A stretch of 48,178 nucleotides of DNA from a virus. Lineage: Duplodnaviria > Heunggongvirae > Uroviricota > Caudoviricetes. The stretch lies in the IMG/VR virus record IMGVR_UViG_3300006143_000285. One strand, written 5' to 3'. The stretch's first letter is position 1. Every line of letters begins with the position of its first letter. Under the pieces are notes generated by a model. That model worked only from the letters and a program-made list of their open reading frames with translations. It was not told the origin of the DNA and did no database searches. Made by a program: the position numbers and the translations under genes. Below, in pieces: positions 7,271-16,445 of the stretch.

Positions 7271-7558
7271 CTATTCTGACTGATGTTTGTGTGCAAGAAG
7301 TATATCCATAACTGTATTTCCCATTAGTGTTGCAAAACCTTCTTGCACAGCTGTAACATCTTCAAGAGAATTGATATACTCCATATTGAAAGCAATATTC
7401 AGATCATACCCTGAAATCTCAGCCAGAGTAATTTCAGGGTGTTTCTCATTCACTATTTTGAGAACCACACGGTCTGTAATGACCTTGAATGTTGTGGTAG
7501 CCTCCTTGACTGGAGGCAATACCACATCTTCTTGAGGATTAGGGGTATCTGTCGTCAT
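7271..7558 (-). CDS. Hypothetical protein
   Basis: 95-aa ORF with a 4-nt overlap to the upstream exonuclease gene. Confidence 0.65.
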   Translation of the reverse strand: MTTDTPNPQEDVVLPPVKEATTTFKVITDRVVLKIVNEKHPEITLAEISGYDLNIAFNMEYINSLEDVTAVQEGFATLMGNTVMDILLAHKHQSE

Positions 7559-8358
7559 ATCTTAAAATGTTTGCGTGATTTTTCAGCTTTGTTCATCTGA
7601 ATCTCGCCACCTTCGATAATGCCACCGACACTTCTCATTCGTTGAGCAAGAACAGCGGCTACGTTGGTGGTGGCGGCTACGTCGGCATCCGCATCGTGAG
7701 CATCATCAAGCTCTACACCAAGATGCTCGCACATGATTTCCAGTTTATAGAAGTTTACGTTTGGATTGCTACATAGAGCAAGTTGACCAAGATGAATTGT
7801 ATCAATCATCTGAGGGTGCCAGTTGCCATAGAAATCAACCCAGCCACGGACAACTTTAATCAATTCAGACAGCAATCCGGTGTACTCAAACATCTGGATT
7901 AAGAATGCTTCATCAAAGGTTATGTTCTGACCGATGACCAAAGGCATTATGTTCTTAGGCGTTTTTGGATAAGTGACGTCTCTGATAAACTTCAGCACAT
8001 CCTGAGCGACTTCATTGATGTCCACCCCCATTCCTAACAACATATCCATTGTAATTGCCGTATAATTCAAGGCTGCATCCTCATACACCATTTGCTCAGT
8101 TGCCGGTGATTCATATTTGCTTTTAAGGACTTTGCGCTTTGGTGCAAGAGCCTTGATTTCTTTTTGGTCATACGGATAGATGTATTTGACATATGAGCCA
8201 AGTTTCTCAAATGTGTCCAAGCGGACAGCGTGAATTGCTATCTGGGTGATACCGATATTAGCAGCTGTGAGCTTCTTTGTCTTGTTCGGTATTCCACCGG
8301 TTTCAAAGTCGAGCACCAGCCCGACAATGTACGGATTTGATTCTTTAGGTGTTGCCAT
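7555..8358 (-). CDS. DEDDh 3'-5' exonuclease (DNA Pol III epsilon-like)
   Basis: LDFETGG, GQNITFD, HDADAD motifs. Confidence 0.88.
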   Translation of the reverse strand: MATPKESNPYIVGLVLDFETGGIPNKTKKLTAANIGITQIAIHAVRLDTFEKLGSYVKYIYPYDQKEIKALAPKRKVLKSKYESPATEQMVYEDAALNYTAITMDMLLGMGVDINEVAQDVLKFIRDVTYPKTPKNIMPLVIGQNITFDEAFLIQMFEYTGLLSELIKVVRGWVDFYGNWHPQMIDTIHLGQLALCSNPNVNFYKLEIMCEHLGVELDDAHDADADVAATTNVAAVLAQRMRSVGGIIEGGEIQMNKAEKSRKHFKI

Positions 8359-8855
8359 TATGCTATGAATGTTGCTATGGTGGTTACTGCTGTTTTTAAG
8401 AAAGATTCGAGGTCAGAGTCGTTATCAAGGACTATATCATAATGCTCTATATTGACACGTTCATAGTCTCGTAGAATACGCTCAGGGGCAATGTTATCAC
8501 GAACAGGCCGATCAATGTGGACTGACAAGATTTCATACTTATCGCTCCAGCGTTCTTTCAATTCGATAAGCCCTTTTTCGTCTATGACATAAGTACATCT
8601 TTTAAGGCCATCAATTTGTGACGTTTCAGTCCAATAATGATTCCCTCCAAAGAATGTGTATGCCAACGGCTTTTCTGGAATTGGATGATCGTGTCCGACA
8701 AACCAATGGTCTCGACCGTTGAATTCGCCTTGTCGCATTGGTCGTGTTGTATAAGAGCATATTGCCGGTATTCCACAGTTTTCTTGAAGATAGAGAGACA
8801 GTGTAGTCTTTCCGCTCCCAGATGGGCCGACAAGTGCGATGATTATAGGTTTCAT
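8358..8855 (-). CDS. Guanylate kinase-like nucleotide kinase
   Basis: GPSGSGKTT P-loop; SYTTRPMRQGEFNGRDHWFV GMK signature. Confidence 0.85.
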   Translation of the reverse strand: MKPIIIALVGPSGSGKTTLSLYLQENCGIPAICSYTTRPMRQGEFNGRDHWFVGHDHPIPEKPLAYTFFGGNHYWTETSQIDGLKRCTYVIDEKGLIELKERWSDKYEILSVHIDRPVRDNIAPERILRDYERVNIEHYDIVLDNDSDLESFLKTAVTTIATFIA

Positions 8856-11029
8856 ATTATTTCCATTTTAGAACTGCGTGATAACCAGATATTATTCTTT
8901 CCAGTATAGTCGCTATATTTTACAACACCAGAAAAGATGATCAATTTGTTTTTGGCGTTCATCAACAGACCACGGAATTTGGCAAATTCTTCGGGCCAAA
9001 CAACACATTCGCAGAGGTCATTATTCTGTTGGAGAACGAGTTTGCAATAGGGCTCTGTCTGTCCAGTCTTCTTGCTCGTCAATTTCTTCTCCTCGTACTC
9101 AGCAACAGTGGCTGCTATTGCTACTTTGCGACCGTCATTCTCGTCATCAAACACTTCTTTGAGGCTGAGATATGAGCAACGGCCCTTGATTTCAGGCTTT
9201 ACAGTAGAATTGTCATAGATTCGACGGTAATCTATTGCACCAATTCCAGACACTTTAATTTGTTGCTGACTCCAAAAATAGTGCTTGCCGATGAACTCAG
9301 AAGGGAAGTCTTTTTCATCAATAGCAAAGCCCAACTGCTCTGCGGCTTTCTGAAGGATTGCGTAGCGTTCAATGACTGACTGAGCTCTTTCTACTTTATC
9401 AAAACAGCCTGCCAAGATAAGATTACGGACATGACGAGCATTGACAGGACAACGTTGAGCTTCTTCTTCATTATCCGGATCATCCCAATATTCGTACTTT
9501 TTGAGTTTATACTTAAAAATACGGTCAATGAAATTTGTGATGCTGGTGAATTCGCCATTCTTATCCCGTTCATTGATAATCCAATCAACCGCTTTCACTC
9601 CAAGCATCTTGATACTTGTGAGAGACCAGAATATTTCATCCGTCTGGAAGTCTGTGTAGAAAGAGGCCTGACTGTGATTGATGTCAGGAGCCACCACCTT
9701 GGCGTTACTGCAAGATTCCATTTCACTCATTAGGGGCACCAATTCATCATCATCAGCCCATTGGAGAGCCACAGTATAGAAAGCTGTGGGGTATTTTGCT
9801 TTCAGATACGCACCACAATATGAAGTTACGGCATAGGCTGTAGCGTGGCTCTTATTAAAGAGGTAACTGCCACACGCTTCAATCTGATGCCATATTGCTT
9901 CCGCATCTTCAATGGGGCATCCATTTTTCTTAGCTCCAGCCATGAATTTTTCTTTCATAGCCTGAATTTTATCCATCTTCTTTTTAGAGATAAATTTCAC
10001 CAGTTTCACACCATCGCCAAGGCTGAATCCACCAACTTCACGAGCGATGAATACAACCTGTTCTTGATATGTGATAAGACCATAGGTATCTTTCAGTGCG
10101 TTATAAGTGCCCCAAAGATACACTGGTGCTCTATCGCCACGCTTACAATCCACATAGTCGGTTGTAGAGCCATTTTCCAGTGTTGCTGGACGGAACAGAG
10201 CGTTGGCTGCAATGATGTCATTTATACAAGAGGGTTGCATTTCTTTGATAAATTTTGTCATACCACGCGAGGCAAGCTGGAATACATTTTGAGTATATCC
10301 AGCACTCAGCAACTCATAGGCACGAGGTTCATCACAGTTACTGGTCGCCAGCATTTCGAGAGACAGATTCGTGCCATACTCCTGATTGCAAAGATTCATT
10401 GTTTGCTGAAGTTTTGACAACTCCTTAGTCGCAAGACAGTCATTTTTCAGAAGGCCACATTCGTCAAGCTGATAGCCGTCGAACTCTGATACAAGCATAC
10501 CATCCACTTTCTTGATGGGCGTATAGTCAAAACACTCCATATCTTCGCCGTCCAGCTGATCGGGAGTCACCAGCAATGCTGATGCGTGAATTGAGCTGGA
10601 ACGAGGCTGAAACATAAGTGTGCGTATATCCTCAAACAGCTGAGGGTATTCATGTATGAACTTGGCAATTTTACGATTAACTGCTGCAAGTTTGAATATG
10701 CCCGTATAGTCGCACTTATCATCGTCGAAAATTGCGGTCAGATAATTCACAAGAGATGGGCTGATACGCATAGTACGAGCCACATCTTTGATAACTGCTT
10801 TAACTTTCAACGTAGTAAGTGTGCCAGCCGAGAAAACTCGTTGCTTGCCATTCAAATTGTATCTCTGCTCAATGTATTCCTTAACCTCCTGACGACGATC
10901 AGACTGGAAGTCGTTGTCCACATCAGGAAGTGAGCCACCGGGGCCCTGAAGATAACCGCTGTCAACAAAACAGTCGGCTACCATTTCAGGGGTGGTGAGC
11001 GTATGTTGTGTAACTTTCAGAACTTTCAT
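8852..11029 (-). CDS. dnaE: DNA polymerase III alpha, C-terminal half (palm aspartates, fingers, HhH, OB) with an N-terminal IntC-like peptide
   Basis: SLPDVDNDF, LKNDCLAT, YQEQV, FNKSHATAY, PDINHS motifs; first 32 aa are not DnaE-like. Confidence 0.92.
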   Translation of the reverse strand: MKVLKVTQHTLTTPEMVADCFVDSGYLQGPGGSLPDVDNDFQSDRRQEVKEYIEQRYNLNGKQRVFSAGTLTTLKVKAVIKDVARTMRISPSLVNYLTAIFDDDKCDYTGIFKLAAVNRKIAKFIHEYPQLFEDIRTLMFQPRSSSIHASALLVTPDQLDGEDMECFDYTPIKKVDGMLVSEFDGYQLDECGLLKNDCLATKELSKLQQTMNLCNQEYGTNLSLEMLATSNCDEPRAYELLSAGYTQNVFQLASRGMTKFIKEMQPSCINDIIAANALFRPATLENGSTTDYVDCKRGDRAPVYLWGTYNALKDTYGLITYQEQVVFIAREVGGFSLGDGVKLVKFISKKKMDKIQAMKEKFMAGAKKNGCPIEDAEAIWHQIEACGSYLFNKSHATAYAVTSYCGAYLKAKYPTAFYTVALQWADDDELVPLMSEMESCSNAKVVAPDINHSQASFYTDFQTDEIFWSLTSIKMLGVKAVDWIINERDKNGEFTSITNFIDRIFKYKLKKYEYWDDPDNEEEAQRCPVNARHVRNLILAGCFDKVERAQSVIERYAILQKAAEQLGFAIDEKDFPSEFIGKHYFWSQQQIKVSGIGAIDYRRIYDNSTVKPEIKGRCSYLSLKEVFDDENDGRKVAIAATVAEYEEKKLTSKKTGQTEPYCKLVLQQNNDLCECVVWPEEFAKFRGLLMNAKNKLIIFSGVVKYSDYTGKNNIWLSRSSKMEII

Positions 11030-12339
11030 TGCTTAATCAATTTCTGAGTTTCTTTACCAAAATAGTTGTTGGTCTGCTTGTATGCGTTCTCAAAGGCCAT
11101 CAAGTCTTCATCTGGCATTATATGACGCTGACTGATGAACGAGTCGGAAATAACGCCTTCCATTGACGTACAGCGACTCAGTGCCACATAGATTTGGCCG
11201 GGACAGAAAACACCCTTGGTATGAATTACTATCTGGTCAAAAGTCAATCCTTGACTCTTATGGATTGTGATGGCCCAAGCCAGTGTAAGCGGAAACTGAG
11301 TGCAGCTTCCTTTGACTTTTTTTACGATCTTGCCATTCTCAGTCACATAGTCGCAGGCTTCCCAAGTATATCGCTCAATTACAGCTGTGCAACCATTATC
11401 AAGGGCAACAAGGATTTTATCGTCTGCGATGTCTTGCACAACTCCCAGCGAACCATTGTAGAAACCTTGAGTTTTATTGTTGACCAAGGTCATTACTCTG
11501 GCTCCGATACGAAGCTCCAATTCTTTATCACAAGGTGCATGACCGATATTGAACTCTTTTTCAATCTGAGCTTCAAAGGTGTGTGTCGGCTCATTCAACA
11601 TAGACTTGTTGATGCGTTCTACATCTTTACGATGGGTACAGATATGGATAGCTGTTATATCATACTTTTCGCTCATATACTTGTCACGCAGCGCACCAAG
11701 ATCTTCTATGTCATCCTCAGTAATCTTGTATGACCGGATATTGTTCAAAATTTCAATGAAGCGGGGGTCTGACTGACGGAATATGTGGTTGAGTTCTACC
11801 ACATTGAAGCCCACTTCCTTGAACACTTGAGCGTTGAAGAAGTAGTAGCCATCATAAAAGGCTTCTAATATATTGGCTTCTTCATTCTTAACGACTGGGG
11901 GCAACTGGTATAGGTCTCCAAACATGATGATTTGAATACCTCCGAATGGCTCCTCTGAACCACGCACCTGACGTAAACGCTTGTCTACATAATCAAGCAC
12001 ATCGGGACGCACCATACTGATTTCGTCAATAATGAGTGCATCAATTGAGTTGAGAAGTATGAACTTATCCTTGGGAAGCATCCCTTTGATAGCGGCATTA
12101 GGCGGCAATACCCCTAAAGGTATTCTGAGCAGACTGTGTAGCGTTACGCCTCCCGCATTGATGGCTGCGATGCCGGTAGATGCTGAAATGACAAATCGTT
12201 TCTTGATGTTGCTAACGATGTAGCGAAGAAACGTTGTCTTACCAGTTCCAGCCTTACCAGTGATAAAGATGTGTTGATTGGTCTGCTCGATCAATTCAAC
12301 TGCCTTCTTCATGTCATCGGTGATTGTGATTTGGCTCAT
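11026..12339 (-). CDS. Pif1/RecD-family SF1B helicase
   Basis: GKAGTGKTT, IIDEISM, GDLYQLPPV, QFPLTLAWAITIHKSQG. Probable start MSQIT at 12339, 1 nt after the upstream stop. Confidence 0.92.
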   Translation of the reverse strand: MSQITITDDMKKAVELIEQTNQHIFITGKAGTGKTTFLRYIVSNIKKRFVISASTGIAAINAGGVTLHSLLRIPLGVLPPNAAIKGMLPKDKFILLNSIDALIIDEISMVRPDVLDYVDKRLRQVRGSEEPFGGIQIIMFGDLYQLPPVVKNEEANILEAFYDGYYFFNAQVFKEVGFNVVELNHIFRQSDPRFIEILNNIRSYKITEDDIEDLGALRDKYMSEKYDITAIHICTHRKDVERINKSMLNEPTHTFEAQIEKEFNIGHAPCDKELELRIGARVMTLVNNKTQGFYNGSLGVVQDIADDKILVALDNGCTAVIERYTWEACDYVTENGKIVKKVKGSCTQFPLTLAWAITIHKSQGLTFDQIVIHTKGVFCPGQIYVALSRCTSMEGVISDSFISQRHIMPDEDLMAFENAYKQTNNYFGKETQKLIKQ

Positions 12340-12340
12340 T

Positions 12341-14050
12341 TTATATTTCGTTGATGGTGAATAATTTGTCTTTGTTATCGAAAAGGATGTCGTCACCCTC
12401 TTGTAGCTCATCAGCATATACGATGATTGGCTCTTCTGCACCATCTCGTTTGATGATTAACTGAGCGTCAACATCTATTTTAAGTGAGCGGCCACATTCA
12501 AGGTCCACTTCCACATATTTGAGAGATTCAATATCCTCACCGATTATGGTTGTTTGAGCAGGGTAAAGTCCAGCTCGTTCAGGAAGCAAGAAACGCTCAA
12601 AAATGAGATCGTATTTAATTGGGTCAATAAGAGTGATTCCCAACAGATAAAGAAGTAGAGAACCAGCAGCCGAACCACGGCCACATCCTACGAGGATTCC
12701 GTTTCGTTTGCACCAGTTAACAGTATCATACTGGACAAGGAGGTAATCGACATTGTTGGTGGATTCGATGATGTATTTTTCGTACTCCATCTGTTTGCGA
12801 TACTGTTCTTGCTTATCAACCGGAACGAGTCGTTGTAGTCCTTCTTCCAACAACTCATTGAACATTTCGTGAGTCGTGCCATATTTCTTCTTCTCCTCTG
12901 GAGTCATATCATATTTTGGCATGAAATTTCGCGCAGTTTCAAATCGAGCCTTGGCACCACCAGCGATTACCAATGTTCGTCGGCAACATTCGCTGAACAA
13001 GAGGTCAATATCGTATTTTTCTTCATCAAACAACTGTTTGAATATAGCATAGTGATCATCGACATCTTTGAAATATTGATCGTCGCTCTGCTCATGTGCT
13101 GCACCCTCTGCTATCTTGTTGAGAATGATTTTGTTTTTGGCATCATCCTTATCAAGATAATAGCAATCTGAAATCAGGATAGGCTGAATGTATTTGTGAT
13201 ATTCAGCGACTGAATCAAAATAACGCTTAGTAGCCTCCAGCACACGAATGTCTATGCGCTCTGCCTTGTACTCAGAGAGGTCTAACTGATAGAAGACATA
13301 ATCGAATACCTTGTCGAATTTCTCAACATATTCAATATTGTTTTCCAGCCATTCCGGTGAATACTTGTCAAATACAAACACATTGCCTTCACCATATTGC
13401 AATAGGTCTTCGACATAGATTGTTTTGTCATCACTGTCAACCATAATGGCTTTCTGTATGCGAAGCAGATTGCGCAATCCTTTTTGAGATTGCACATACA
13501 CTTTGCCGCCTACCTGAGAAATACCATCGGTAAAAGCGAGAGTGTAACCAAATATCGGGGTGATTCCGGCTGCATCACATTCTTTCTGAAAAGCAAATAG
13601 TGATGCCATTGTGTTTTTGTCACAGACACCCAGAGCGTCATGTCCCAGATATTTTGCCTTTTTTACCCATTCTTTTGGCATAAAGCTACCATTGAGCAGT
13701 TCAAAAGGCGTATGGACACCAAGGTTCACGAATTCAACACTGCTCTCATTGGGTTTGCGCTCACCTACATATTTCAATATGTTAAGTGTGAAATCTTTTC
13801 TAAGGTCAGTATAGTACCAGTTGTCGCCAAACTTGAAGACTATGTAGTTGATACCTTCATCCATCAAGACATGCGAATCCTCGATACTGTTGAACACCAT
13901 TTCGCCATCAGCATTACCCCTAAAGATTGAATTGACTTTATCTGTATCTTCAAAAAGCAGCTTGCCCATACCGGGGATTTCGATGACTTCTTCATCTATT
14001 ATGTTGTGCTGAATCTTGTTTCTGTTCAGCCATTCGATAAGCTCATTCAT
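12341..14050 (-). CDS. dnaE: DNA polymerase III alpha, N-terminal half (PHP + start of palm) with a C-terminal IntN-like segment
   Basis: FVNLGVHTPFELLNG PHP start, GCGRGSAAGSLL, DPIKYDLIFERFLLPER, followed by a 77-aa non-DnaE tail (AG + 75 aa). Confidence 0.92.
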   Translation of the reverse strand: MNELIEWLNRNKIQHNIIDEEVIEIPGMGKLLFEDTDKVNSIFRGNADGEMVFNSIEDSHVLMDEGINYIVFKFGDNWYYTDLRKDFTLNILKYVGERKPNESSVEFVNLGVHTPFELLNGSFMPKEWVKKAKYLGHDALGVCDKNTMASLFAFQKECDAAGITPIFGYTLAFTDGISQVGGKVYVQSQKGLRNLLRIQKAIMVDSDDKTIYVEDLLQYGEGNVFVFDKYSPEWLENNIEYVEKFDKVFDYVFYQLDLSEYKAERIDIRVLEATKRYFDSVAEYHKYIQPILISDCYYLDKDDAKNKIILNKIAEGAAHEQSDDQYFKDVDDHYAIFKQLFDEEKYDIDLLFSECCRRTLVIAGGAKARFETARNFMPKYDMTPEEKKKYGTTHEMFNELLEEGLQRLVPVDKQEQYRKQMEYEKYIIESTNNVDYLLVQYDTVNWCKRNGILVGCGRGSAAGSLLLYLLGITLIDPIKYDLIFERFLLPERAGLYPAQTTIIGEDIESLKYVEVDLECGRSLKIDVDAQLIIKRDGAEEPIIVYADELQEGDDILFDNKDKLFTINEI

Positions 14051-15081
14051 AATTGTACGGTTTTTAGTTTATATTCTCGTGGAGTCATCAGACCTAATGA
14101 AAATGTGTCGAATATCTCCCAGAAATTCATTTCATCCCAGTCTTTACCATTACCCTGAAGATTGGCAACATAGACATCGAAATACTCATTCAGATTGTCG
14201 GCAGCTTTAAGAATTGACTCTCTTGCATCCGAATCATATCCTATCACAATTGTGCGAACACCTTTGCATTGGAGCTTATAAATCTGGGCCTGAGATATTT
14301 TTTTACCGAATGTCGCTACAGCAACTATTCGTGGATTATCATATAGGTCGAGTTTTCTGGTCAGGGCAATCACATCAAATATGCCTTCACAGAGAATGAC
14401 AGTATCAGTTTCATCTTCAATGACAGAATCGTAGTTGTAAAGCAACTTGACAAAATCATTATCTATGCTATTGTTGTATCGACGCTTCTCATACTTCCCA
14501 GCCCAACGTGCTTTCTCATTATATGAATCTATTTCATCTTTGCTCCAAGTATGTCTTGACACATACCCCACTGTATCGCCATTGTCGATAATTGGAAATA
14601 CAACATAATCGTCAAATTTGAAATTAAGTCCACGAGTAGTGCCAACTGGGAAATATTCGTAATCATCAGCTTCAAAACCTCGATCTTTCAGATACTTATT
14701 TCGATAGCACCTTTTCCACCCGTCTGGCATTTCTACTACTGTTAGTTCGTCATCTATTTCTGCTTCATTAATTTGATAGAATGTCGGTATTTCGAGAGGA
14801 GCAAAAGATGCCTTATCTTCGACTTTAAGGTCTGAACGATTGATCAAGTCTAAGAGCTGGTCGAGACTTCTGGTTGTGGCACCACACTTGAAACAGTGAG
14901 CCATAAATGGTTTCTTGTTTTCAGTTTCAGGCCCAATATATATACCAAACTTAGAGCCGCCTTTCCCACAGACAGGACAAACCGGCACCAAAAGATTTTT
15001 TCGGCTACCATCTAATTTGGCGTGAAGTTCCAATGAAATTTCACGAATGATATATTCTCGTTCTTCTCGGCTCAGATACAT
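14047..15081 (-). CDS. DNA primase (Zn finger + TOPRIM)
   Basis: CPVC...HCFKC zinc finger; LCEGIFD and GYDSD TOPRIM motifs. Confidence 0.85.
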   Translation of the reverse strand: MYLSREEREYIIREISLELHAKLDGSRKNLLVPVCPVCGKGGSKFGIYIGPETENKKPFMAHCFKCGATTRSLDQLLDLINRSDLKVEDKASFAPLEIPTFYQINEAEIDDELTVVEMPDGWKRCYRNKYLKDRGFEADDYEYFPVGTTRGLNFKFDDYVVFPIIDNGDTVGYVSRHTWSKDEIDSYNEKARWAGKYEKRRYNNSIDNDFVKLLYNYDSVIEDETDTVILCEGIFDVIALTRKLDLYDNPRIVAVATFGKKISQAQIYKLQCKGVRTIVIGYDSDARESILKAADNLNEYFDVYVANLQGNGKDWDEMNFWEIFDTFSLGLMTPREYKLKTVQL

Positions 15082-15083
15082 AA

Positions 15084-16445
15084 CTATGCGGCTTTATTGA
15101 TATTCATAGAGCGTTGACGGTCGTAGAATGTCTCATGCTCATAATCTGTCGCAATCTTGAACGGCTCTCCTTTCTTAAAGAAGCGGCTCTTGGCAACATG
15201 TATGCGCATTGTATTTTCTTTTTCTTCACGCGAAGACTGGTTGAGTGTGATCAGATGCGTGAGTGGACGACAAAGACCTTTGGCCTCAGATGTATTGTAT
15301 GCGGTTAGAACATTCTTTTCATCATTCAGCCATTCTTGATTTTCAATAGTGGATTGATATGTAACGACCATCCATACATTTTCATCAGAAGCCAAATCTT
15401 TTAGGTCATTGGCGACACGAATTCGCTTCAATCGTTCCCCTTTTTCCGTATAATGCTGACCGGAAGAGTCTGTAAGCAAATCCATTGAATCAATAATCAC
15501 GACATCTGGAGAGCAATTATAACGCTTCTTGTAATCTTGGATAGCATTGTTAATGTCGATAGTTGAAACATTGGAGTTGAATTTCGGATAAGATTTAACG
15601 TGCAGTTTGCCAGAAATACCTTGGAGCATTTCTTCCATTTTAGCCACTTCGCTATCTCGCAGTGTTCCAGTCTCATATTTGAATGAATTACAGGACACAA
15701 GAGAAGCTGCGTATGCGTCAACAACTTCGGACTCACTGCCTTCAAGCTGAATATGCAAGACATTTAGGCCATCAATCTGACAGGCATTTTTTCCTATCCA
15801 TCTGGCAATATGACTCTTGCCCACACCTGAAGGCGCGAGAAAACAACTTAGCTGTCCACGGAGATTGCGGCCATTGTTGCGCGTGTCCAATTCATCAATA
15901 TAAAATCTGGTGATTGGAGTGCGCTTACTGGCACTATTATGTTTTTGTCGGTTAGCCTTAAACCGTGTGCTGAAGGAGCCTATGACATCTACAAATTCTG
16001 TAGATACCAAACTGAATTCATTGGCCCATTCGGAATATGCAGCCAAACGTTTCGCGGCTTCTTCGTAACCGGCTTTGTTGTATAGTTCACCAACTTCCTT
16101 GTATGCTTGTTGAAACTTGACTTGCTTGATGTATGCTTCCAATTGTTCGAGGGCATCATCAGGGTCCATGAGGTTGGCTGTAGAATCAATGTCCTCCAGT
16201 AACTCTATGGCTGCTCTGTTTTTTGCTATGGACTGTTTCAAGATACTAAACGATGGTACTCGCTTAGTCTTTTTATAATAGTCCTTGATTGCTTTATGGA
16301 GAGTCTGGAACTCTCTGTCAGGCAATTGACGAGATTCCAAATGCTCTACTACCAATGCCAGAATGTAATCATTATTCAAGCATGTGTAGTAGAGATCCAT
16401 AAGGAACTCATCTGTCAATAAATTACTTTCCTGTTGCATTGCCAT
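15084..16445 (-). CDS. Replicative DnaB-like helicase
   Basis: APSGVGKS Walker A, IQLEGS, VVIIDSMDLL, VTYQS; adjacent to primase. Confidence 0.85.
   Translation of the reverse strand: MAMQQESNLLTDEFLMDLYYTCLNNDYILALVVEHLESRQLPDREFQTLHKAIKDYYKKTKRVPSFSILKQSIAKNRAAIELLEDIDSTANLMDPDDALEQLEAYIKQVKFQQAYKEVGELYNKAGYEEAAKRLAAYSEWANEFSLVSTEFVDVIGSFSTRFKANRQKHNSASKRTPITRFYIDELDTRNNGRNLRGQLSCFLAPSGVGKSHIARWIGKNACQIDGLNVLHIQLEGSESEVVDAYAASLVSCNSFKYETGTLRDSEVAKMEEMLQGISGKLHVKSYPKFNSNVSTIDINNAIQDYKKRYNCSPDVVIIDSMDLLTDSSGQHYTEKGERLKRIRVANDLKDLASDENVWMVVTYQSTIENQEWLNDEKNVLTAYNTSEAKGLCRPLTHLITLNQSSREEKENTMRIHVAKSRFFKKGEPFKIATDYEHETFYDRQRSMNINKAA

Follow-up and report, generated by a model that had tools for sequence, protein, structure and literature searches.

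A replicative DNA polymerase of a gut Bacteroides phage split through its active site, with tails that may descend from a split intein

In the viral DNA of IMG/VR record IMGVR_UViG_3300006143_000285 (Caudoviricetes), a stretch of 48,178 nucleotides (nt) that we refer to as the window, the C-family DNA polymerase DnaE is encoded in two pieces. The locus consists of three tightly packed genes on the minus strand. The first gene, the N-half of DnaE (12341..14050, 569 amino acids (aa)), encodes a PHP domain and the early palm with the GRGS motif and FERFLLPER, followed by a 77-aa extension that we call the N tail (12344..12574, minus strand; AGLYPAQ...TINEI; net charge -12), a putative degenerate intein N-fragment; the stop codon occupies 12343-12341. 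According to the translation of the open reading frames (ORFs), the second gene begins one base past this stop codon and encodes a PIF1/Dda-like superfamily 1 helicase of 437 aa (11026..12339, minus strand; Pfam PIF1, E 1e-31). The third gene, the C-half of DnaE (8852..11029, minus strand, 725 aa), has an ATG that overlaps the helicase stop codon as ATGA. It opens with a 32-aa extension that we call the C head (10934..11029; MKVLKV...GPGG), a presumed degenerate intein C-fragment with the block-F-like motif VADCFV, and continues with the remaining palm bearing all three catalytic Asp, the fingers and HhH. Directly after the C head stands SLPDVDNDF (10907..10933), which contains the +1 Ser and two catalytic palm Asp and aligns to SMPDIDTDF of Taq. 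An earlier, sequence-only reading of this DNA had placed the split at FERFLLPER-AG plus 75 aa on one side and 32 aa plus SLPDVDNDF on the other. The ORFs and translations match this description exactly, and the coordinates of the halves are right, but the helicase gene between them had gone unmentioned.

The end of the N-half reads ...GCGRGSAAGS...FERFLLPER and then passes into a tail that is foreign to canonical DnaE. The Pfam model DNA_pol3_alpha (PF07733) is divided between the two genes, the N-half matching positions 2-99 and the C-half positions 94-260. In agreement with the earlier claim that the active-site residues are divided between the halves, alignment to the solved Pol III alpha structures of the PDB assigns PER to the end of the N-half, whereas all three catalytic Asp, the third within LLKND, fall in the C-half. 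Because PER ends the N-half while all of the catalytic Asp sit in the C-half, the polymerase is cut through its active site; and because the cut falls between the PER helix and the strand that bears the catalytic Asp, neither half is expected to be active alone. The feature set of a C-family DnaE (PHP, a palm with three catalytic Asp, fingers and HhH) is complete only when both genes are combined. The unsplit phage DnaEs at loci L046-L050 read PERVSMPDID without any insert, and the tails of the split DnaE are absent from unsplit homologues. We regard it as practically certain that the split is real. As a separate observation, HMMER aligns both 12541-12574 (ERAGLYPAQTT) and 10901-10942 (PGGSLPDVDND) of the window to one segment of Taq Pol III, residues 457-467. 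Both sides of the cut thus bear the x-G/S-L triplet that follows PER, which may be the relic of a target-site duplication or a chance agreement.

A gene in two pieces might also be a decaying pseudogene in a phage that relies on the polymerase of its host, and the unusual gene structure alone would fit such a view. However, both halves are intact and evolve under strong purifying selection: the ratio of nonsynonymous to synonymous substitution rates (dN/dS) in the palm flanking the cut is 0.02-0.03, a value that is based on few usable sequence pairs owing to the near saturation of synonymous sites. Many lineages, one of them represented by a cultured phage, have this layout, and the split polymerase genes belong to a complete replisome module. 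With its neighbouring genes (7555-8855 and 14047-16445), the module runs from a DnaB-like helicase and a Toprim primase through the three genes to a guanylate-kinase-like P-loop kinase and an RNase T/DnaQ-like exonuclease. Decay is therefore the least credible of the explanations considered here, and we treat the two genes as an intact polymerase.

Comparisons of the N tail with known protein families indicate that it is likely to be of intein ancestry. When 43 diverse N tails were scanned singly against Pfam, the most frequent match was Intein_splicing (PF14890), which was found in 18 of the 43 with a best E-value of 1.5e-4; Hint was found in four, and the window's own N tail reached an E-value of only 0.11. 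A profile built from the tail alone and searched against 1.84 billion representative proteins retrieved 41 clusters at an E-value of 1e-3 or below. Because nearly all of these clusters are DnaE N-halves or fragments of N-halves, the N tail belongs to the split polymerase and to almost nothing else. One of the rare matches outside DnaE (P0240, E 3.5e-4) comes from a fractured ribonucleotide reductase; this fragment contains a Pfam Intein_splicing domain with an intact block B, TYNH. Aligned to this intein with hhalign, the alignment of the tails gave a probability of 97% and an E-value of 1.2e-10 over 44 columns, in a register that places YVEVDLE.G on YIEIEFEDG, DVDA on TYNH and ADELQEGDDI on CDELEEGDDI. 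Homology to the Hint domain was thus found by sequence for the N tail. The sequence-only reading had located LKIDVDAQL at block B, with TxxH changed to DxxA, and had recognized a Hint GD motif (ADEL..GDDI), and the alignment to a real intein confirms this register. It had also held that Cys1 of block A was replaced by Leu; a replacement has occurred, but intein residue 1 more likely corresponds to the Ala of 'AG', because a sister clade of split polymerases has an invariant Cys at that place (PER-CGL...). By ESM Atlas features, an Intein_splicing cluster (0.77) ranked ahead of all other families except DnaE, a result that we take as a lead only. The N-tail profile found nothing significant among the PDB sequences, where a TFIIB mini-intein stood at E 0.85, below rows at chance level.

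For the C head, an origin from an intein C-fragment (IntC) is suggested by its position, the block-F-like V-x-D-C-F-V, its ending and its charge. In many relatives, the C head ends with His-Gly or His-Ala before the Ser, which equals the His-Asn before Ser of inteins with the Asn replaced. In the window, it ends with GPGG before the Ser and lacks His-Asn or His-Gln, as had been claimed and as the translation confirms. The mean charge is -9.7 for the N tail and +2.6 for the first 14 residues of the C head, and a complementarity of acidic and basic charges has been described for the halves of split inteins (PMC2677866). The proposed resemblance of this peptide to IntC accordingly holds for pattern and position, but it was not recovered by profile search: the N tail matched inteins (Pfam and hhalign) and the C head did not. 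A third search for homologues returned close relatives only and added no further types of C head. One candidate for an unsplit relative (P0239, L083:4200-6700), in which the end of the N tail reads in frame into the C head and C-half, was rejected; its contig is frameshifted every 100-200 nt, and the fusion is probably an assembly error.

Judging from the residues that remain, it is highly probable that no splicing occurs. At position 1, the window and the rest of its clade have Ala, and a few relatives have Gly; a Cys is confined to the sister clade. The Thr and His of block B are Asp and Ala (DVDA), a pair that is nearly invariant across the 43 tails. The last residue of the C head is Gly in the window (Gly-Gly), the corresponding endings in relatives are His-Gly, His-Ala, His-Ser, Ser-Gly and Asn-Gly, and a terminal Asn, Gln or Asp was found in none of about 40 distinct C heads. 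The sole splicing residue that survives in the window is the +1 nucleophile, Ser33 of the C-half. Because the Cys of residue 1, the Thr and His of block B and the terminal Asn have been lost, a dead intein pair of this kind would be unable to splice, and the earlier description of the pair as catalytically dead holds for the window and for every relative examined. A pair that still trans-spliced by a non-canonical chemistry would produce a single-chain DnaE. Inteins that start with Ala exist, Ser+1 is kept in nearly all relatives, and in the block-F-like motif the residue after the Asp is often Cys or Ser. However, relatives have Met, Thr, Ala, Ser or Leu in place of the block-F Cys next to this Asp, L031 and L034 carry Ala and Thr, respectively, at +1, and the block B His is Ala in all of the tails. 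Together with the missing terminal residue and the Ala at position 1 of the window, these substitutions make continued splicing very improbable, and we regard the halves as two separate chains.

Both tails are under purifying selection. Measured as for the palm, and with the same small number of usable pairs, the N tail has a dN/dS of 0.13 and the C head one of 0.27, and both persist in every layout, whatever stands between the halves. A joint fold of the tail pair, the sole direct test of a clasp, scored 0.51 (0.49-0.53 between runs; 'weak support'), and the best of three controls scored 0.00. The predicted local distance difference test (pLDDT) values of the partners were at least 68, and the runs shared at least 95% of their contacts. 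In the calibration of this fold, which applies only roughly here because the alignments were user-made, 58 of 80 solved complexes passed, as did 2 of 110 mismatches, and scores of 0.60 or below comprise only seven of the 80 complexes and both of the passing mismatches. Because the pair fold gives weak evidence at that score level, we infer the binding of the tails rather than demonstrate it. We think it fairly probable that the tails act as an assembly module. The sequence-only reading had gone further and had called the pair a domesticated, non-splicing clasp; its components stand as far as the split, the homology of the N tail, the loss of the splicing residues and purifying selection are concerned, whereas the role of a clasp is not established by a pair fold that scores only 0.51.

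The tails may also be functional without being a clasp. The palm fragments would then associate by themselves, and the tail domain would serve higher-order assembly, the binding of the exonuclease, clamp or helicase, or regulation. A precedent is found in Aeh1 NrdA, whose tails are dispensable for formation of the heterodimer and essential for activity and for assembly of the holoenzyme and higher-order complexes (PMC3045599); because of this, 'clasp' is possibly the wrong word. In the N tail, moreover, an invariant and very acidic patch (D61, D66, D69) adjoins the active site. However, C heads work with the N tails of other lineages, as described below for loci with an endonuclease gene, which suggests a conserved interface between tail and head. 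We consider a role apart from pairing unlikely, and we retain pairing of the tails as the preferred account of their function.

The window phage is a gut Bacteroides phage. A nucleotide search of GenBank phages with the region gave no match. The closest cultured relative is the temperate Bacteroides phage BS-TP1, which has an identical three-gene layout and is 74% identical in the junction region. The record of this phage (PQ571274.1, L001, locus 7708-9336) is linearised inside the DnaE C-half, which is unannotated; gp1, a small 'hypothetical protein' on the opposite strand within the C-half, is probably spurious, and the N-half is named only 'DNA polymerase'. Neither the BS-TP1 paper nor the paper that names the DnaE-bearing 'Gratiaviridae' mentions a split of the polymerase. 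In protein and contig searches, N-halves with the N tail turned up in large numbers, from both gut metagenomes and Bacteroidota genomes. These fall into two main clades, that of the window with PER-AGLYP... and the sister clade with PER-CGLxWK..., an invariant Cys and hosts of the Muribaculaceae and Alistipes types. The split is ancient.

The DNA between the halves differs among lineages. In L035, L036, L039, L040 and L045, nothing is present and the ORFs overlap by 11 nt, and in L044 and L118 the halves are about 100-150 nt apart. The PIF1 helicase occupies this position in the window and most of its clade. An N6/N4 DNA methylase with a NUMOD4-HNH_3 endonuclease stands there in the L002-type loci (L002, L092, L093, L097 and L100, as identified by Pfam on L002 only), a helicase with a NUMOD4-HNH_3 endonuclease in L003, L017, L019 and L033, and a Bro-N protein in L037 (6245-6814) and L038; most other loci of the sister clade have about 1.37 kb there. 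Because other lineages have nothing or other genes at this place, the helicase is a passenger and not the cause of the split. In relatives, the split site is a landing site for HNH and other mobile genes, and in the window, Pfam identified only the PIF1 helicase and no homing endonuclease gene between the halves.

In the relatives with an HNH gene, this gene lies directly upstream of the C head and is accompanied by its own copy of the head. L033 has the HNH gene and its sister L031 lacks it. Between these two loci, N-tail identity is 96% but C-head identity only 43%, whereas the L033 head matches those of the HNH-bearing L017 and L019 at 74% identity; across lineages, the heads of HNH loci are 74-80% identical. 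This pattern of head exchange is a sign of co-conversion during homing. Because L033 and L031 share the N tail and not the C head, the heads of one lineage serve the N tails of another, which fits a conserved interface.

Many of these loci carry what we call a gap allele. The C-head ORF ends with ...S-L-P, its CCG codon is followed immediately by a stop codon, and the DVDxDF frame resumes 7 or 8 nt later in another frame. Such alleles were first seen in L002, L003, L017, L019 and L033 and also occur in L037/L038, the L092-type loci and L119-L124 (sites at L003:3772-3896, L017:8137-8261, L019:8154-8278, L033:8163-8287, L037:6824-6948, L093:8227-8275 and L119:6409-6458). They are not confined to loci with an endonuclease, for L119-L124 have the gap-type head with no gene in between, and in L037/L038 it stands beside the Bro-N gene and not HNH. 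TAA, TAG and TGA are all found as the stop, the length of the gap (7 or 8 nt) differs between lineages, and the codon directly before GAT is CCG, UCG or GCG. Just 5' of the CCG lies a 10-bp hairpin that extends as far as the first base of this codon. Its folding energy is -18 to -21 kcal/mol, whereas continuous alleles average -6.8; the hairpin covaries, with compensatory changes at five pairs and pairing in 98.6% of cells. The C-halves downstream of the gap are full length. Because contigs of four bacterial isolate runs (X8, X10, X12 and X17) carry the gap allele letter for letter (L093:8100-8400), it is real DNA. The same four runs also contain the continuous allele at similar contig depth, which may reflect two related prophages or a mixed population. 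No RNA data set was among the listed carriers of the gap allele.

An independent start of the C-half in gap alleles was ruled out, as no start codon precedes it in that frame in L017. Simple -1 or +1 frameshifting is unlikely, since the gap is 7 or 8 nt depending on the lineage and a slippery site was not seen. The simplest explanation that covers all of the gap alleles is a short hop, in which peptidyl-tRNA-Pro would move from CCG to the next NCG; a programmed hop of this kind is probable and would yield the same protein as the continuous alleles. The window has none of the features of a bypass of the gene 60 type: its C-half is continuous, and neither endonuclease, hairpin nor gap is present.

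Several points weigh against an origin of the tails from an intein or against the function we assign to them. In an AlphaFold model, the isolated N tail has a mean pLDDT of 65. The top Foldseek matches of the folded N tail are mini-inteins and hedgehog Hint domains, but they are non-significant (E 1-5), and a second-look structural aligner gave Z 2.2, to one intein only. The search of PDB sequences with the C-head profile returned a single row at chance level and no intein, which leaves the C head without a statistical match to IntC. At about 109 aa, the tail and head together fall short of the size of known mini-inteins, and they lack the first subdomain past block A. To these points are added the doubt about the word 'clasp' and the fact that all of the evidence on this phage is computational. 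Part of this evidence, together with the HNH gene and its own head copy directly upstream of the C head in relatives, would suit another origin, in which the tails are new sequences brought by a homing-endonuclease cassette, as proposed for MobA with T4 gp39/gp60 and MobE with Aeh1 NrdA, and the likeness to Hint is chance among short, acidic, beta-rich peptides. However, Pfam, the tail profile and hhalign point to inteins and to no other family, with block B and GDDI in register, and relatives retain Cys at position 1 and His before the last residue. We doubt that a cassette alone accounts for the tails. Both origins could hold at once if a split intein with a free-standing endonuclease (PMC2677866) was the ancestor of the cassette, and an intein remnant remains the origin that we prefer.

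The general idea is not new: genes split by endonucleases and bearing tails are known from Aeh1 NrdA and T4 gp39/gp60, and an origin of such tails in a degenerate intein has already been proposed. NrdA-a/NrdA-b of Aeromonas phage Aeh1, which is split by mobE, resembles the present case in many respects: an essential enzyme is cut through its active site, the halves are unspliced and encoded by adjacent genes, unsplit homologues lack the C- and N-terminal tails, and an HNH endonuclease plays a part. According to its authors, the tails are possibly a degenerate split intein (Friedrich 2007; Crona 2011, PMC3045599). The tails of Aeh1 NrdA have no detectable intein similarity and the endonuclease is present, whereas in the window the enzyme is DnaE, the N tail is related to inteins, a helicase stands in place of the endonuclease, and the arrangement is old and widespread. 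In the T4 mobA/gene 60 cassette, the gap protects its carrier from the cassette's own endonuclease, and conserved tails stay on both halves after the endonuclease is lost; Manning and Atkins (2022) considered such tails a possible general strategy (bioRxiv 10.1101/2022.08.31.505936). The relatives of the window share with T4 gp39/gp60, which is split by the MobA cassette and has a 50-nt bypass, an HNH gene between the halves, a short head ORF, a stop codon at the take-off site, a gap and a 5' stem-loop. They differ in the gap (50 nt in T4, 7-8 nt here), the take-off codon (GGA in T4, CCG here) and the target (topoisomerase there, DnaE here), and both the endonuclease and the gap are absent from the window.

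Among the fractured genes that combine active split inteins with a free-standing endonuclease are three DnaE loci (Dassa 2009, PMC2677866). These loci and the cyanobacterial split DnaE intein are alike in having two pieces tipped by intein halves, adjacent genes with a mobile gene between them and complementary charges. However, they keep Cys1, TxxH, Asn and the +1 nucleophile and trans-splice, whereas the window keeps only Ser+1. A split PolB, gp43A/gp43B, is reported for some T4-related phages (Petrov 2010, as cited in PMC3045599). It is likewise a two-chain replicative polymerase that arose after insertion of mobile DNA, but it belongs to another polymerase family and is split at another site. 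To our knowledge, no intein-like tails are known for it. What is new in the present case is the combination of a replicative DnaE, tails homologous to inteins but without the catalytic residues, a wide distribution among gut phages and the very short gap cassette of relatives.

On balance, we lean towards a two-chain DnaE whose tails are the remnants of a dead split intein and pair non-covalently. According to this model, a C-family replicative polymerase would be made as two polypeptides from a single operon, and the 77-aa tail and 32-aa head would be the remains of a split mini-intein (Hint domain) that formerly occupied the site. The acidic N piece and the C piece with its basic start most likely fold into one small beta-rich domain, which would set the two palm fragments in register without a covalent bond, and polymerase activity would then depend on binding of the tails. 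In relatives, the split site has also taken up an HNH endonuclease cassette, which lies just upstream of the C head and brings its own head.

The annotation of these genes is corrected by the present analysis, since databases enter the halves separately, as 'PHP domain-containing protein' and 'DNA polymerase III alpha', or leave parts unannotated, as in BS-TP1. If the gap alleles are read by hopping, translational bypass could be studied in a second natural system that is independent of T4 gene 60, and the short gap would be convenient for that purpose. If the model of the tails is true, the 77-aa and 32-aa pieces would be a small natural heterodimerising pair that joins protein fragments without a scar, and its C heads are apparently interchangeable across lineages. 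If the tails bind without splicing, they would show what becomes of a split intein after splicing is lost and would lend support from sequence to the speculation about Aeh1 NrdA. As a tentative picture of the whole group, one to which we give somewhat less than even weight, this may be a family of gut Bacteroidota phages with a two-chain polymerase held together by a domesticated dead split intein, whose relatives carry an HNH cassette that requires a short programmed ribosome hop. If so, it would be the first case in which the turning of a split intein into non-splicing assembly tails, long suspected, can be read in sequences.

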